Part shown: piece by piece, positions 1 through 62,503 of the stretch | Layout: every line of letters begins with the position of its first letter | How positions within the stretch are numbered: the stretch's first letter is position 1 | IMG/VR virus record: IMGVR_UViG_2657245648_000004 | Length of the DNA: 64,000 nt | Source: an uncultured virus (IMG/VR IMGVR_UViG_2657245648_000004) | Lineage: Duplodnaviria > Heunggongvirae > Uroviricota > Caudoviricetes | Strand: one strand, 5' to 3' | The notes under the pieces: model-generated | What the model saw: only the letters and a program-made list of their open reading frames with translations | What the model was told of the DNA's origin: nothing | Databases searched by the model: none | Translations under genes and position numbers: made by a program

Positions 1-3000
1 TTTTGAATCATTCTGAGTCTCAGTTTTGCTTGAGCCATCAGAGCTTACAGTGACATAAACAGTGATCGGGGTCTCGTTCGAATTGGATTGCTTTTGGTTC
101 GAATTAATCGCTTCAAATTGTCTAGACTCTCTTCTCGTTGCAATGGCATCAGATTGATTGTTTGATACATAGCCACCGTTAGCATAACCACTTGGTGAAC
201 TCGTCCGCATAGATTCGACAACACTTACCCCACCCCAGCGTTTAATATCTTCTTGCGACCAAACAACCTCACCTTTATGCACAATCCCTGCTGGAGTATG
301 TTTAAGCCCATTTCCTGTATAGCCGCCATCAGAGAAGCCGGCTATAGTTTGTCCAGCGATCAGACCAACATTCGCCATCCCCATCCCAAGCACAAGGTTG
401 GCTGCTGTTGATTTGCTAATTACATCCAAATACCACGGACTTGCTAGAATCTGGTTATACGCCTGTAACGCGCTAATTGTGGCTGAGCCAATTGCGAATG
501 CTTGCTGTGCTATATACATGCCCTTGTATATACCAGATTGCTCGCCCGCTGCATTTTTAACAATTCCAGTCATATTTGACCAGTAGCCACTAAGCTGACT
601 TGTTAAGCTACCAAGTTGCCCCAATTGGGTTTCAAAAAGTGAGCTATTCAGGTCCCGTTCATCTTGAGCATATTTTTCATCCAGTGCTTTTCTGGATTGT
701 AAATATTGCTCTCGCGCTGCCAATAATTGCGAGTTCCTCTGTTCCTCATCAGCAATTAGATTAATACCATTAATTTGGTCTATATATGTATTTAATAGCC
801 CTCCTGCATCAGTTGAATACCGATTTTGCAAATCCCATTGAGCATACTCTCGCGGGTCATTTTGTTGAAATACTTGTTGTGAAGCATTAAAACCGCTCTG
901 AAAAACCTTATCTGATGCGCTATCTAAAGTCTGAAATTGCCCCATATTATTAGCGCTAAGCAACCCAGCTTTTAGTTTGGCATCTCTAACTTTTTCAATC
1001 TCTTTTAACTCGGCTTGATACCGCCTTACTGCTAGCTCAGTCTCGCCCATGTATGAGCTTTTCGCCTCAAGTAACTGTTTTTCACGAGCCAACTCTATAA
1101 GCTCAAGTTCTTGCTGCTTTTGCAATTCCAGGCCATCTAAAGCAACCTTTCTTTGATCTTCAGAGAGTTTGCCTTCAGCAACTAATCGCAAAGAATTGGT
1201 TTTATATGTGTAATCAAGTTTTTGTTCTTCAGTCCACTTATAACCATTTACTTCAAAATCTTGCTGAAGTTTGGCGAGTTCATCTTGAGCTTTATATCGC
1301 TCTTTGATTTTAGGAATTAAGGCTGTTTGACCCGTTTGTTGCGCAAGGTTAATTTCTTCGTTACGAGCCTTGGTTCGCTTCGCTTGCTCCTCCTCATATT
1401 GCTCTTGAAGGTTTAGACCTTGCTTAACTAACTCTAAACGTGCCTTGATTTGCTCTCCATAGGCTCTATCGCTATCACCATCGGATAAACCGCCTTTGCC
1501 AACACCACCAGCAATGATATCGGAATACCTTGAAACCTTAGCTACATACTGCGAAACCTCCTTATTTCGCTCTGCACTGCCTTTAACCTTGCCAGTTTTA
1601 GTAAACTGTCTTGCTCCACCCTCACCTGCATTATGGGAAAGTATTGCCTGAGCCAAGTCACCTGTTTTTTCATAAACCTTGGCGATATTATCAATTACAA
1701 TTTTGCCCGACTTTTCCAAGTCATAACTATCAGCAACAGACATATTGTTCTGTTTACGATAACCACTGGTTGTTTGAAAATATCCTATTGCACCAGTATG
1801 ACTCTTAGCTTCTCGAATACCTTTAGATTCTTGAGCCAATAAGCCTGCAATTACACTTGATGGTATCCCTTTGCTTTCAGCATATTTACCTAAACCACTC
1901 GATTCAATTAAAGCAGCAGATCGCTTGGCTACTTCCAATTCAGCTTGTGTGATTTTAAGTTTTTTCTCACTTTCCTTGGTTTGCTTTCTTTTAGCTTCAG
2001 TTAATTTATCTTCTCGCTCCTGTTGTTCTTCGATGATCTTGAGATTTCTAAGTGCGCTATCAATTTCATCTTTAGACAAAATTGCACTCATTCCTTTTGC
2101 TTTTTGCAGTTCTAAAATGGCATTAGCTTGAGCAACAGTGTAACCTTTATCAAGCCAACCTGATTTATAGATTGAATCAATAACGCTATCTTTTTGCTTG
2201 GCTTGATAATCTTGCAAAGCCTTAGTTGCCTTTTCTGCTTCAGTAGCAGTATTTCCTAAAGCATCAGCATGCTTCTGTTGCTTAATTGCCGCATTTTGTG
2301 CTTCATTACCTCCAAGTTTCACTTCAACTCTTAATAATTTAAGTTTCTCAGCTGATAAACTTGCTTTAGATGCATTGTCATCATACTGCGCAGCCTGTTT
2401 TTTCAGATTTTCATATAGATCTGTAGGCAACTTAATTTTATTTAGACGTTCAATGGCTTCTGTATAGCTGATAGTTCCAGTTCTCGCTTCTTGGGAAATT
2501 TTTTCAACCTCCCTATTTCCTCGTGCATAGTTCTCGATATCAATTAATGCAGACCCTACAGCACGCGATGATTTCTCTAATGCTTTATTTTGTGCATTAA
2601 AAGCAGTAGTTAAATCATTAACTGCTTTAGCCTTATCATTGCCAGTTAATTTTTTTAACTCCTCATCAGCTTTCTCAGCAACTTTAGCTTGTTCAGCAAG
2701 CTTTTGCTTTGCCTCCTCTGCCTTATTATTAAAATAAGAATAGGCTGCCGCTAATCCCATTACTCCTAATGTTGCAACTCCAGCCCACCCACCAATTAAT
2801 CCAAACGCCCCTTTAGCTAGTCTCCCTGCAATTGAAGTTGCAGTATTTAGCTTAATTTGAGCTGCTGTTTGTGCATTTGTAGCAGCAGTTACTGCTGCCT
2901 GTGCTTGTGCGTATCGAGTTGCTGCCGCTGTTGCGCCAAATTTAGCTTGGGTTTCTGCATTTGTTGCTCGCACATTCGCGAGATGAGCTTTTGCTGCATT

Positions 3001-3981
3001 CAAAGCAGCGGTAGCTTCTGCATATTCTGCTTGAGCATTTAATACAGATGCTTGGCGGCTCGCTAAAGTTGAAGCCATTCCCTCTTTAATAGCAGCGCTC
3101 TTCATCAAAATTGCACGAGTGATATATCCAATACCAACTACTAAAGCCCCATCAGCAATTAAATCTAAATTACTTGCAAGAGTTTGAACTGATCCAGCTA
3201 ATACCTGTGCCGCACCACTTCCCTTACCTGCTTCGCCAACAAATTTTGTGATCTCGTTGTTTAGGAGTGTGAGAGACTGCCCGATTGTGATATCTGTTTT
3301 AGCAAAAAGAGCATCAACATCAGATTCTACATTTCTAAGCGCTTTTACAATTTCTTGTGAAGTAATTTTTCCTTCAGCTGCTACTGAACGTAATTCACCT
3401 ACAGTAATACCCATACCTTTAGCAATAGCCTTTGCTAGTGCTGGGGTTTGCTCCATTACAGAATTAAGTTCTTCTCCACGCAACGTTCCACTAGCCAAGG
3501 CCTGCCCGAACTGAACTAAAGCTGCATCAGCAGCTTCTGCGCTTGCACCACTAATTGCTACAGCTTTAGAAACTGTTTCAGTTAAGCGGGCCGTTTCGTC
3601 CATGTTTATGTTTAGTGTTTTCGCATTGTCACTAAAACGCTGGTAGACCTGCAAAACCGAATTCCATGTCGCATAAGTTTTTTGAGCAATTCTAAATGTA
3701 TCTTCAGTTGCTTTATTTAGCTCAACTTGATTCTTGGTTACTAACTTAAGTCTGTTCTGTAAGCCTGTATACTCATCCATTTTGGATATAGCCGCGCCAA
3801 CTGTAACAAGACCTGCCATGTGTCCAGCAAGTGCTCTTGTTGCTACAGACAAACTATCCATGGACTTTGATGCAAAGTCCCCTTTCTTTTCTATGCTGTC
3901 GAGTTCATTGCCTAGATTTCTTGCGTTTCGTTCCGCATTTTTCGAATCAATAGTAATGACTAGACGTGATTCTTGAGTCAT
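1..3981 (-). CDS. Tail tape measure protein, prophage 1 (runs off the window start), with internal lytic transglycosylase (SLT) domain
   Basis: Not in the ORF track because it is partial. ATG at 3981 (MTQESRLVITIDSKNAERNARNLG) matches the 49049-53017 TMP. 1-240 is near-identical to 49130-49370 and in the same frame. Manual translation of 1620-1920 gives QESKG..AIGYFQ..SHNAGEG. Confidence 0.9.
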   Translation of the reverse strand, partial: MTQESRLVITIDSKNAERNARNLGNELDSIEKKGDFASKSMDSLSVATRALAGHMAGLVTVGAAISKMDEYTGLQNRLKLVTKNQVELNKATEDTFRIAQKTYATWNSVLQVYQRFSDNAKTLNINMDETARLTETVSKAVAISGASAEAADAALVQFGQALASGTLRGEELNSVMEQTPALAKAIAKGMGITVGELRSVAAEGKITSQEIVKALRNVESDVDALFAKTDITIGQSLTLLNNEITKFVGEAGKGSGAAQVLAGSVQTLASNLDLIADGALVVGIGYITRAILMKSAAIKEGMASTLASRQASVLNAQAEYAEATAALNAAKAHLANVRATNAETQAKFGATAAATRYAQAQAAVTAATNAQTAAQIKLNTATSIAGRLAKGAFGLIGGWAGVATLGVMGLAAAYSYFNNKAEEAKQKLAEQAKVAEKADEELKKLTGNDKAKAVNDLTTAFNAQNKALEKSSRAVGSALIDIENYARGNREVEKISQEARTGTISYTEAIERLNKIKLPTDLYENLKKQAAQYDDNASKASLSAEKLKLLRVEVKLGGNEAQNAAIKQQKHADALGNTATEAEKATKALQDYQAKQKDSVIDSIYKSGWLDKGYTVAQANAILELQKAKGMSAILSKDEIDSALRNLKIIEEQQEREDKLTEAKRKQTKESEKKLKITQAELEVAKRSAALIESSGLGKYAESKGIPSSVIAGLLAQESKGIREAKSHTGAIGYFQTTSGYRKQNNMSVADSYDLEKSGKIVIDNIAKVYEKTGDLAQAILSHNAGEGGARQFTKTGKVKGSAERNKEVSQYVAKVSRYSDIIAGGVGKGGLSDGDSDRAYGEQIKARLELVKQGLNLQEQYEEEQAKRTKARNEEINLAQQTGQTALIPKIKERYKAQDELAKLQQDFEVNGYKWTEEQKLDYTYKTNSLRLVAEGKLSEDQRKVALDGLELQKQQELELIELAREKQLLEAKSSYMGETELAVRRYQAELKEIEKVRDAKLKAGLLSANNMGQFQTLDSASDKVFQSGFNASQQVFQQNDPREYAQWDLQNRYSTDAGGLLNTYIDQINGINLIADEEQRNSQLLAAREQYLQSRKALDEKYAQDERDLNSSLFETQLGQLGSLTSQLSGYWSNMTGIVKNAAGEQSGIYKGMYIAQQAFAIGSATISALQAYNQILASPWYLDVISKSTAANLVLGMGMANVGLIAGQTIAGFSDGGYTGNGLKHTPAGIVHKGEVVWSQEDIKRWGGVSVVESMRTSSPSGYANGGYVSNNQSDAIATRRESRQFEAINSNQKQSNSNETPITVYVTVSSDGSSKTETQNDSK

Positions 3982-60791: not shown

Positions 60792-60874
60792 ACCTCTCGT
60801 TTGATTTGGGATAAAGCCTTATCTCAAGGCATTAAAAAAGCGCCCCTTAGGACGCTGTATTTCGATTAATAAAG

Positions 60875-61495
60875 TTATGCGATGTTAAAACCTTCAACAC
60901 CACGCTTCTGACGATTTCGGGTACGTTGCTCTAGCCACATTTGGCCTTGCTCAATATTAGTAATAGCAAGTGAATTTTCACGGCAAGGAAACTTTTCATT
61001 AAGAACACGTAATCGATGTAAAACAATCGCAATTAAAGCTTCATTCGTGATGCCATTAACTCCAACTTCCTTAACTGGACCAAGTTGGAATTGAATTGGA
61101 GTAAGTGAGTCTCCAGCTACGACATCATAGAAATGACCTGGTTCAAGAGACTGCTCATCGTCTCGGGTTTTAACGGTTTCGTTATGGAAAACCGTTACTT
61201 CGTTATCATCTTTATGGATTTCACGGCCCATTACACAATTTTGAAAACCATCTGGTTGATATGAATGTTCAAAAACATCCTTTGGTGACCAAGAAATATA
61301 ACCTTCATGATCAGGATGATTAGCTTTGCCGCCATCTTTATATTCGATTAAATAACCAGGATCACTTGGGTCTTCATTTTCAGGGATTTGCCACCCTTGG
61401 TATTCATTGTATTCACCACGCGTCATGGGCGTTGCTAAAACTGACTTAGTACCAATGTATGCAACCATTGATAATGCTAATAACTTCTTAGACAT
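60875..61495 (-). CDS. Two-domain protein: YIGTK/SWSPK domain fused to a Tad1-like nucleotide-signal sponge
   Basis: C-half IQFQ.GP....GVNG...LIAIV.HRL....FPCRENSLAIT.IE...MWL..RT..R..RGVEG matches the recalled Tad1 pattern. Confidence 0.75.
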   Translation of the reverse strand: MSKKLLALSMVAYIGTKSVLATPMTRGEYNEYQGWQIPENEDPSDPGYLIEYKDGGKANHPDHEGYISWSPKDVFEHSYQPDGFQNCVMGREIHKDDNEVTVFHNETVKTRDDEQSLEPGHFYDVVAGDSLTPIQFQLGPVKEVGVNGITNEALIAIVLHRLRVLNEKFPCRENSLAITNIEQGQMWLEQRTRNRQKRGVEGFNIA

Positions 61496-61567
61496 TTTTT
61501 ATACTCACAAAAAAAGCACCTCTAGGCGCTAGTTAAATTTATTTAAAGCTCAAAACATCAAAGAAAA

Positions 61568-62080
61568 TTAAAGGTTTTCAATCAGTTCAATAAGCTTATT
61601 ATTTACTGAATCTTGTACTTTATTGTTTAAACGAGGAGCTTTCAAAAGTGAGGTCAATACTTCAATAGAATGAAGATTTGCATTATGAGCATCATAAGTG
61701 TTAACACCTGCACCTGTGACAGTTATATGGGATCCCAAGCTTTCAATTTTTGGTGATTCAACTGCTTTAAGTGATGGCTCATCTAAATTCTGGCCAACCT
61801 CAACCGCTTCACCTTCGATTACTTGTGGCTCTGAAGGTGGTTCAATAATTTCAAATCCGAGCTGTTTTAAGTTTTCAATGGCAGCTGTAAGTGCAAATGG
61901 ATTGTAATCACCAACTGGTGAGTCTTCAGGAATCAAATACTCGCCGTTTACTTGCACTCCAGAGTGAAGTTTTAAGATGCATATAATGCGTTTAGGTAAT
62001 GCATCTGGTGATGGCTGGTCCACATTGAAATATTCAACATTTTGCACTAACTCTTGAAGGGTTTGCGGTTGCTTTGTCAT
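61568..62080 (-). CDS. Protein with divergent Gp49/Acb4-like N-terminal domain
   Basis: V.NVEY..IICILKLHSGVQVNGE..A...AIENL..L.F. Confidence 0.5.
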   Translation of the reverse strand: MTKQPQTLQELVQNVEYFNVDQPSPDALPKRIICILKLHSGVQVNGEYLIPEDSPVGDYNPFALTAAIENLKQLGFEIIEPPSEPQVIEGEAVEVGQNLDEPSLKAVESPKIESLGSHITVTGAGVNTYDAHNANLHSIEVLTSLLKAPRLNNKVQDSVNNKLIELIENL

Positions 62081-62272
62081 GATGACCTCACATAAAAAAA
62101 GCACCCGAAGGTGCTATGGTTGAAGTTTTTTAGCGTTTCCGCTTTAAGTAATCTTTAAAATGTTTTTTTCTTTGCCAGTAGATAAGCCCACTGACAATTA
62201 AAATTGATACAAAGATAAATTCTGGACTAATACTCATAATCCTTACCTATTAAAAATCTACATAAACTTTCG

Positions 62273-62503
62273 CTACGTTTCCTTTACTTGAGTTGGTCTT
62301 GGCTCATCGCTTACCAAGCGAATACCATTAACACCATAAGCTTCGAAAGTTACTGTTATTGTGGCTGGTCCATCACTAGCATTACTGTTCATCTGTACTG
62401 CTCTTTGACCAGCTAATGGCAAACCAGTTTCTTCATCACAAATAACTAAGTAACCTTTTAAGGTTGGGTGACGCTTAAGCACTAAATGTCTTGATTCACT
62501 CAT
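62273..62503 (-). CDS. Conserved hypothetical protein
   Basis: Homologue of 12604-12840. Confidence 0.75.
   Translation of the reverse strand: MSESRHLVLKRHPTLKGYLVICDEETGLPLAGQRAVQMNSNASDGPATITVTFEAYGVNGIRLVSDEPRPTQVKET

Follow-up and report, generated by a model that had tools for sequence, protein, structure and literature searches.

Sponge proteins are a main route by which phages counter the defence systems CBASS, Thoeris and Pycsar. Seven sponge families were counted as characterised in a review of October 2026 (PMC13712596), and an eighth, RyR Tad, was added by a preprint (Fedorova et al., bioRxiv 10.64898/2026.06.04.730250) that gave this name to gp68 of Pectobacterium phage vB_PatP_CB1, the C-terminal RyR-repeat domain of which sponges glycocyclic ADP-ribose (gcADPR). 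Members of the Tad1 family that have been solved or tested (CbTad1, 7UAV/7UAW; CmTad1, 8KBB) are single-domain proteins of 123–138 amino acids (aa). The gene described here specifies a Tad1 sponge that is preceded by an additional 85-residue module. It is found on the minus strand at nt 60875–61495 of IMG/VR record IMGVR_UViG_2657245648_000004, a stretch of 64,000 nt (hereafter, the window) that is an Acinetobacter prophage, with flanks showing 79–86% nucleotide identity to A. baumannii phages.

The secure result of the analysis is that this Tad1 sponge carries a recurrent, unnamed and sponge-associated domain, termed here the N-domain. It has no database entry, accompanies most sponge families, also stands alone, and is more conserved than the sponges to which it is attached. 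The open reading frame (ORF) list and translation show a sole long ORF spanning nt 61250–61470, a segment that corresponds to residues ~9–82 of a 206 aa protein (coordinates include the stop codon). The parts of the gene are as follows:

60875..61495, minus strand: whole gene, a two-domain anti-defence protein (N-domain plus Tad1), from the ORF translation and full-length relatives
61469..61495, minus strand: nine-residue leader MSKKLLALS, residues 1–9, from alignments; a short helix of low confidence
61241..61468, minus strand: N-domain core, residues 10–85, from the phmmer family, a predicted local distance difference test (pLDDT) score of 94.2 and homology to the N-terminal domain of CB1 gp68
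60878..61240, minus strand: Tad1 sponge domain, residues 86–206, from a PDB sequence search and Foldseek

Residues 86–206 are Tad1 by both sequence and fold, in agreement with the sequence-only reading, an earlier note made from the bare DNA, which had proposed a fusion to Tad1. A sequence search of the PDB returned CmTad1 (8kbb, E = 7.5e-17) and the CbTad1 chains 7uav and 8kbh (E = 2.7e-7), and the Tad1 of SBSphiJ7 shares 54.8% identity over residues 131–202. When the full-length model was used as a Foldseek query, 16 matches were obtained at E ≤ 0.001, and all 15 listed rows up to E = 1.7e-3 were Tad1 entries, with E = 1.1e-7 for 8kbb and a template modelling (TM) score of 0.77 (normalised to target; root-mean-square deviation 2.5 Å) for 7uaw. 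The Pfam family for the Acb2/Tad1 hairpin (PF24729) scored 25.5 bits on this half, slightly below its cut-off of 27. The pocket of CbTad1 for gcADPR and cyclic dinucleotides is formed by residues F82, N92, R109 and R113 (Li et al., preprint 10.1101/2023.11.15.567273), and in the HMMER alignment three of these four positions are identical (N174, R191 and R195 correspond to N92, R109 and R113), with L165 in place of F82. Longer Tad1-like proteins exist: the same part of the protein is matched by the 200–230 aa profiles of PHROGs 22140 and 23843, and chain I of the multi-chain PDB entry 8y6v ('gp184', 230 aa) matches residues 126–202 (E = 3.8e-6). Some Tad1 relatives are annotated as 'structural protein'.

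The aromatic-rich segment that the sequence-only reading had placed at residues ~10–80 proved to be a domain separate from the Tad1 half. Profiles of the PHROG database part at about residues 85–98 (phrog_872 covers 4–82, phrog_2428 covers 98–204), free-standing Tad1 relatives begin at the position of residue ~86, and free-standing N-domain proteins stop at the position of residue ~82. The full-length AlphaFold2 model contains two confident domains of uncertain mutual position (pLDDT 90.5; predicted TM score (pTM) 0.57), with confidence dipping to 73 at residues 81–90. Modelled alone from a 148-row alignment, the N-domain reached a pLDDT of 94.2 and a pTM of 0.81. Its elements, in domain numbering, are a strand (10–14), a helix (17–24), two strands (38–43 and 58–62) and a helix (63–69), giving the overall order beta1 (YIGTK), beta, alpha, beta, beta, alpha; the monomer model assigns no strand to domain residues 1–9, which include YIGTK. 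Residues 13–76 read YIGTKSVLATPMTRGEY..GW..EDPSDPGYLIEYKDGGKANHPDHEGYISWSPKDVFE, as quoted in the earlier note. Domain length is nearly constant at ~77 residues, and 26 of 76 positions are at least 90% conserved (alignment A2). In window numbering these include K17, A21, M24, Y29, G34, W35, P38, E41, G47, L49, E51, Y52, D54, G56, N59, G65, Y66, S68, W69, S70, P71, F75 and Y79. Many of the invariant residues are polar or aromatic (K17, R26, Y29, W35, E41, E51, D54, N59, S68, W69).

The leader MSKKLLALS occurs only in Acinetobacter forms, where it is retained with different partners; in the full-length model it is a helix (residues 3–9) of low confidence (pLDDT of the block, 67). Taken with the residues that follow, it has the look of a secretion signal (a basic start, then a hydrophobic stretch and V-L-A), a feature that would be unexpected in a sponge of the cytoplasm.

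That the domain is uncharacterised was borne out by searches of Pfam (E ≤ 1), NCBIfam and PADLOC, none of which returned a match to the N-terminal half, while PHROGs returned only families of unassigned function. Foldseek found no match to the N-domain at E ≤ 0.001 in a copy of the PDB with entries to April 2026, in which the gp68 structure is absent. The best structural alignments found were to small beta folds of the chromodomain, chromo-shadow and Tudor-like kinds and to DUF1653 (3be3), which likewise have a three-stranded sheet packed on a C-terminal helix. The nearest clusters in the ESM Atlas, which are leads only, are unnamed viral proteins of 67–93 aa (scores 0.85–0.87). Relationships to known sponges were assessed by profile–profile comparison (hhalign) of the N-domain alignment with alignments of Tad2, Sequestin, Acb4 and Tad1 cut from the same proteins. 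The N-domain was rejected as a divergent form of any of the four (probabilities of 0.1–0.3%; Tad2 0.3%, Sequestin 0.3%, Acb4 0.1%), and the Sequestin and Acb4 domains adjoin the N-domain in the same chains.

One published protein does contain the fold. The N-terminal 69 residues of CB1 gp68 are homologous to the window N-domain (BLASTP, 38% identity over 64 residues, E = 2e-7), and the hidden Markov model (HMM) of the family matches gp68 at E = 1.7e-10 over positions 2–73 of 77; a search of BFVD also matched the N-domain to an RyR-domain protein of Yersinia phage TG1 (E = 1.7e-3). The proposal of a new domain is thus only partly right: no database lists it, but its fold is already mentioned in the 2026 preprint on gp68, and the N-domain plus Tad1 case is partly anticipated in print. 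In the full-text literature found, there is no description of the fusion spectrum of the domain, and its only mention is as the N-terminal domain of gp68. Systematic surveys would miss it: Tal et al. (10.1101/2025.07.12.664507) queried Pfam families only, and the N-domain has no Pfam entry, while in their search for structural homologues, matches with extra domains outside the region of homology were treated separately.

A phmmer search with residues 10–85 against 1.84 billion cluster representatives returned 1631 matches at E ≤ 0.001 and 939 at E ≤ 1e-10, far more than chance would give. Partner domains were counted by hand among the 150 best of the 1631. A Pfam partner was present in 92 of these and absent from 58, and 91 of the 92 partnered proteins carry sponge families: Tad2-like PF11195 (42), Sequestin PF21825 (41), Acb4 PF13876 (10) and the Acb2/Tad1 hairpin PF24729 (5), with seven proteins carrying two. 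PF21825 is the 3' cyclic ADP-ribose (3'cADPR) sponge Sequestin and PF13876 is Acb4 (Tal et al., 10.1101/2025.07.12.664507). The sole non-sponge Pfam partner is a WDGH domain (PF25311, 1 case, E = 1.9e-43) in a protein of 181 aa (P0127); by eye, the partner stretch has a pair of His-x-Thr-like motifs (YHTF, DGHT) that recall Acb1 and other 2H phosphoesterases. Local HMMs built from the labelled partners were then run on 147 of the 150 proteins (three of >350 aa were excluded). One or more sponge families were found in 103, another 13 were nearly free-standing, and 31 had a different region of at least 40 aa that matched none of the models. These 31 unclassified partner regions (40–134 aa) match none of Tad1, Tad2, Sequestin and Acb4, are singletons by BLAST, and are candidates for new sponge or anti-defence domains.

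Similar results were obtained from IMG/VR, where at least 571 loci carry the N-domain. The best 80 loci from each of two scans (which found at least 571 and at least 530) gave 159 loci with 102 distinct N-domain ORFs, and 95 of the 102 are fused to a sponge: Tad2 in 56, Sequestin in 19, Tad1 in 12, Acb4 in 4 and multi-sponge chains in four, leaving seven with no recognised partner. A further sponge gene is nearby in 22 of the 95 fused loci. The N-domain may be located at either end or in the middle of the protein, and the chains with several beads include N-Sequestin-Acb4 and N-Tad2-Sequestin. The sequence-only reading had also put the domain ahead of Tad2-type (DUF2829) domains in phage proteins, and this holds for gp49 of phage N4 and for a protein of Vibrio phage 36E38.1. 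In N4, gp49 (N-domain plus Tad2) is next to gp48, which is Acb4 (local HMM, E = 1.4e-26), and the pair (locus L002, nt 1124–1977, plus strand) lies beside the virion RNA polymerase gene. The Pfam name for PF13876 ('N4 Gp49') is ill-suited to gp49 of record EF056009.

Published supplementary tables contain further cases. The Sequestin file of Tal et al. has the motif SWSP in 291 rows and GYLVEY in 175 (not split by sheet and not HMM-checked), and in two rows of their Lockin table the Lockin part is preceded by a divergent stretch that by eye resembles the N-domain. The homologue lists of Hadary et al. (9,142 + 2,954 + 7,493 rows) contain SWSP six times; by eye, and not HMM-checked, only two of these are N-domains, one in a Tad2 'known homolog' (E. 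coli AIEC_UM149) and the other in a row of the Acb2 table. The string WSP is absent from their supplementary table of tested homologues, a file that may not list sequences. Overall, and with RyR Tad counted, the N-domain accompanies seven of the eight published sponge families, the exception being TadIV-1, which according to a review is T4 Vs.3. Partners in these tabulations are overwhelmingly anti-defence sponges and so clearly enriched; the repeated fusion to different sponges that the sequence-only reading had supposed is confirmed, and the partner pattern is wider than was stated.

Full-length relatives of the 206 aa protein share 58–97% identity and are all of ~204–211 aa, and the architecture, represented by 12 distinct IMG/VR ORFs, is common in Acinetobacter prophage contigs. 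Among deposited phage genomes (INPHARED), none of 245 records covered at least 80% of the query, that is, N-domain and Tad1 as a single unit. The N-domain itself was detected in 136 of 50,697 INPHARED records (E ≤ 0.001), mostly N4-like and other phages of Escherichia, Vibrio, Klebsiella, Pseudomonas, Acinetobacter and Erwinia, but also in phages of Clostridium perfringens (55–57% identity to the window copy) and of Bacteroides and Parabacteroides (35–38%), so that the hosts span Proteobacteria, Firmicutes and Bacteroidota. By comparison, Lockin is reported to be absent from INPHARED and Acb5 to be found mostly in phages of Actinobacteria (Tal et al., 10.1101/2025.07.12.664507). Proteins of >361 aa with the N-domain numbered only six, all with Tad2, and this search of large proteins gave no sign that hosts use the N-domain as a sensor domain.

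Free-standing forms of 69–84 aa are also encoded. A search limited to proteins of 41–133 aa returned 73, of which 42 have 68–90 aa, and several are on contigs of 27–75 kb. An example is gp22 of Erwinia phage phiEaP8 (78 aa), which adjoins the virion RNA polymerase gene and has no annotated sponge gene among the four genes within 2.5 kb (neighbours read by annotation, not scanned). Three IMG/VR loci (L032, L112 and L161) specify proteins of 77–100 aa and have no sponge gene within 3–4 kb by HMM. The 35 aligned free-standing proteins share the invariant residues of the fused forms, including all of the polar ones. Free-standing genes with full conservation argue against the domain being a mere prop for a fused partner, which would be useless alone.

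Comparison within the same proteins gave a median pairwise identity of 52–58% for the N-domain and 17–36% for the fused sponge, and the N-domain was the more conserved in 97–100% of pairs; the proteins had been chosen for N-domain similarity to the query, which inflates the first of these figures. N-domain identity is 56.0% within a partner class and 55.5% between classes (a difference reached by 11 of 500 shuffles), and in 61 of 97 cases the closest sequence has the same partner, with 36 expected. Such a small gap, together with the number of shared neighbours, indicates descent but no partner-specific sequence type. In a FastTree reconstruction, based on only 77 columns and weakly resolved, partner type changes at least 38 times over 104 labelled leaves, compared with 44–47 in the five printed of 200 label shuffles. 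Within Acinetobacter, N-domains that are 71–80% identical to the window copy carry Tad2, Sequestin, Acb4 or Sequestin plus Acb4. Median net charge is similar in the two parts, −3 for the N-domain and −1.5 to −4.5 for the partner sponges. Every partner family oligomerises and works without the N-domain, and the tested Sequestins A–F do not have it.

The gene order on the minus strand of the window is a portal fragment, a MuF-like head morphogenesis gene (phrog_241), ORF76 (phrog_1046), ORF178 (phrog_31105), the N-domain plus Tad1 gene, a scaffold gene (phrog_206) and the major head protein gene (phrog_247). In the related Acinetobacter phage phi1_092021, the slot that follows the ORF178-like gene and precedes the scaffold is filled instead by a 104 aa gene (locus L087, nt 2200–2514, minus strand) that matches the local Acb4 HMM (E = 8e-20), has no N-domain and is labelled 'anti-CRISPR protein' in its record. 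An Acb4 gene in one phage and N-domain plus Tad1 in the other mean that the slot carries interchangeable sponge cargo; it is a variable anti-defence cargo slot within the head-gene module of Acinetobacter prophages. The order in Clostridium perfringens phage vB_CpeS-1181 is portal, head protein, three small ORFs, N-domain plus Acb4, a Tad1 relative, scaffold (DUF4355), a further ORF and capsid. Its N-domain plus Acb4 protein has 154 aa (PF13876 at 1.3e-26), and the separate Tad1 relative that follows directly has 123 aa and is annotated 'ABC transporter ATPase' (both genes at locus L006, nt 2501–3339, plus strand). This placement is the one seen in the Acinetobacter prophage, although the hosts are distant from each other.

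A consensus scan for terminator-like sites found five, compared with 1.4 ± 1.2 in shuffled sequences, all being pattern matches only. Hairpins of this kind are placed before ORF178, between ORF178 and the N-domain plus Tad1 gene, and just after the latter. The two that border the gene are:

61515..61530, minus strand: terminator-like hairpin and T-run between the upstream ORF (61568–62104) and the 206 aa gene; pattern match only
60839..60856, minus strand: terminator-like hairpin and T-run just past the stop codon, ahead of the scaffold gene; pattern match only

A scan for sigma-70-like promoters found none directly upstream of the 206 aa gene. ORF178 (61568–62104, minus strand), flanked by terminator-like hairpins, has no Pfam match, belongs to a PHROG of unassigned function (phrog_31105) and is conserved at ~86% nucleotide identity in several A. 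baumannii phages. Its position directly upstream of the variable sponge slot makes it a candidate for a further anti-defence gene. ORF76 (62273–62503, minus strand; phrog_1046), between the MuF-like head gene and ORF178, also has no Pfam match and is present in phi1_092021.

Taken together, the gene would specify a two-module counter-defence protein of an Acinetobacter prophage, carried in the variable cargo slot of the head-gene module. The C-terminal Tad1 module would sequester signals made by TIR or cGAS proteins, as the solved Tad1 proteins do. Going by its crystallised homologue in CB1 gp68, the N-module would pair as a dimer in which the beta1 strands are swapped, and this dimer would bind a target of its own, the likeliest being a small immune signal distinct from 1''-3' gcADPR. 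It would thereby add a second specificity to the joined sponge, in the manner of the beads in Acb4-Tad2 and Acb4-Sequestin. Our tentative preference is for the N-domain as such an autonomous, dimeric binding module. It is favoured over a clamp, an alternative considered below, by the conserved free-standing genes, the self-sufficiency of the partners, the large number of invariant residues that are polar or aromatic and the absence of adaptation to any one partner. The partner spectrum, the freedom of position within the chain and a net charge close to that of the sponges also speak for it.

Several observations weigh against this preference. Residues 1–86 of gp68 showed 'no apparent activity' against type I Thoeris, while residues 65–183 suffice, the C-terminal domain alone being able to inhibit and to bind ligand. 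In the crystal, the gp68 N-domain is a domain-swapped dimer, beta1 of each chain inserting into the other protomer to complete a five-stranded sheet, and dimerisation is its visible role (10.64898/2026.06.04.730250 for all of these). In the window copy, an Arg that is 93% conserved (domain position 24) is replaced by Gln (Q33), as it is in 8 of 148 aligned sequences, which may weaken this copy should the Arg have a function. The loop at residues 58–62 (A-N-H-P-D; nt 61310–61324, minus strand) occurs in two coupled forms, N-H-P-x-H/F and N-D-x-R-H, both of which are found with every partner type, and it is missing altogether in some members (the Clostridium copy, short N-domain plus Tad1 forms and gp68). 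To judge from the alignments, the coupled variants N-H-P-x-H and N-D-x-R-H look like a structural charge swap and not a ligand site. Lastly, free-standing forms are a minority among the top IMG/VR matches (3 of 102 ORFs, at 77–100 aa), and the upward bias in the conservation comparison must be borne in mind.

The first alternative is a passive clamp: the N-domain would bind no target and would only dimerise, its strand-swap pairing stabilising or cross-linking the attached sponge oligomer and so raising avidity, solubility or local concentration. The gp68 data are its best evidence: in the crystal and by size-exclusion chromatography with multi-angle light scattering both domains contribute to the dimer, with beta1 of the N-domain inserted into the other protomer, and the N-domain was inactive against type I Thoeris (10.64898/2026.06.04.730250). 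The sequence-only reading had suggested that the domain either binds another immune signal or scaffolds the sponge oligomer, and for the gp68 member the strand-swapped dimer and the inactive N-domain favour the scaffold. YIGTK is not a strand in the monomer model, as expected if beta1 needs a partner chain; a dimeric unit fits the symmetries that reviews give for the partners (Tad1 hexamer, Tad2 or Acb4 tetramer, Sequestin or RyR dimer, all with two-fold axes); and there is no sign of a nucleotide-binding fold in the N-domain. Set against these are the free-standing genes, which are fully conserved and, in phiEaP8 gp22 (by annotation only) and the three IMG/VR loci (by HMM), are without a nearby sponge gene. 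In addition, all partner families oligomerise and work without the N-domain, its invariant polar and aromatic residues of surface type far exceed what a strand swap would need, and adaptation to particular partners is lacking. The experimental data come only from gp68, an atypical member from which most of the polar invariants of the main family are missing, and for one reported defence system. On this evidence a pure clamp is the main rival, somewhat less likely than the binding module.

A second alternative, which we consider improbable, is that the N-domain inhibits a protein, binding either a host sensor or effector, as Tad3–Tad8 bind ThsB or ThsA, or a guard of the Panoptes type that detects sponges. 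The identity of 55–57% between the Acinetobacter copy and those of Clostridium perfringens phages is unusually high for a phage accessory protein, and evenness of this degree is easier to reconcile with a conserved protein surface than with a small pocket. The N-domain also occurs in the anti-signalling hot spot of N4-like phages, where non-sponge inhibitors have been described, and guards against sponges (Panoptes, Panoptoo) have been reported. The spread of hosts over Proteobacteria, Firmicutes and Bacteroidota would, however, require a target of very wide conservation.

A role in virion targeting, the N-domain being a tag by which the sponge is packed into the capsid and delivered along with the DNA, is suggested by the position of the window gene, with the MuF-like head gene on one side and the scaffold and capsid genes on the other, by the same arrangement in Clostridium phage vB_CpeS-1181, and by the annotation of those Tad1 relatives called structural; but in N4-like, Vibrio and Pectobacterium phages the N-domain is found among early or replication genes, gp68 is not in the list of CB1 structural proteins confirmed by mass spectrometry, and the head-module slot of the related Acinetobacter phage holds an Acb4 gene without the domain, so that the slot and not the domain explains the position. 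We regard this role as very unlikely indeed. Scarcely credible is a divergent copy of a known sponge fold (Tad2/DUF2829 or another), which would make proteins of the N4 gp49 type tandem sponges of one family. In its favour are a loose likeness to Tad2 by eye (aromatic-x-x-W-x-P followed by an acidic helix) and the appearance of SPO1 Tad2 (8wje) at Foldseek rank 9, but a hidden Tad2-like repeat is rejected by the profile comparison at the level these tools reach.

Should the N-domain prove to have a target, it would point to a branch of phage counter-defence that is still missing and, through the unclassified partners, would provide a marker for new sponge domains; if it is only a clamp, it represents a general way for phages to tune sponge assembly. 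The N-domain could represent a further autonomous counter-defence family, a possibility we hold with reserve, in which a strand-swapped dimer captures another immune signal or neutralises a guard that senses sponges, and in which the 31 unclassified partners amount to a list of further sponges. Phages would then be attaching the N-domain to nearly all sponge families so as to extend or shield their means of sequestering signals.

The closest described relative, the N-terminal domain of gp68, shares with the main family the motifs K-x-x-x-A-x-PMT-x-GE-aromatic, GYLV-x-Y and Y-x-SWSP-x-x-VF and a position ahead of a sponge domain. It keeps the hydrophobic and structural core but is without R26, R33-G-W35, E51 and the GGK-x-N-H-P-x-H loop of the main family, and its partner is an RyR-repeat sponge where that of the window N-domain is Tad1. 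Among multi-sponge fusions, such as Acb4-Tad2 of Pasteurella phage Pm86 and Acb4-Sequestin of Pseudomonas phage Ab09 (gp59), independent oligomerising beads are strung together in anti-defence hot spots, and the N-domain is found in such chains; every bead of those fusions has a shown ligand, unlike the N-domain. As a short (~75 aa) phage protein of anti-defence loci, including the N4-like hot spot, the N-domain has a general trait of sponges. Sequestin, an all-helical hairpin dimer with shown binding of 3'cADPR, is unrelated by profile to the alpha/beta N-domain, but the two are of similar size, exist in both fused and free-standing forms, and came to light in the same way, Tal et al. having recognised Sequestin as a domain fused to Tad2 and Acb4 and then validated it (10.1101/2025.07.12.664507).

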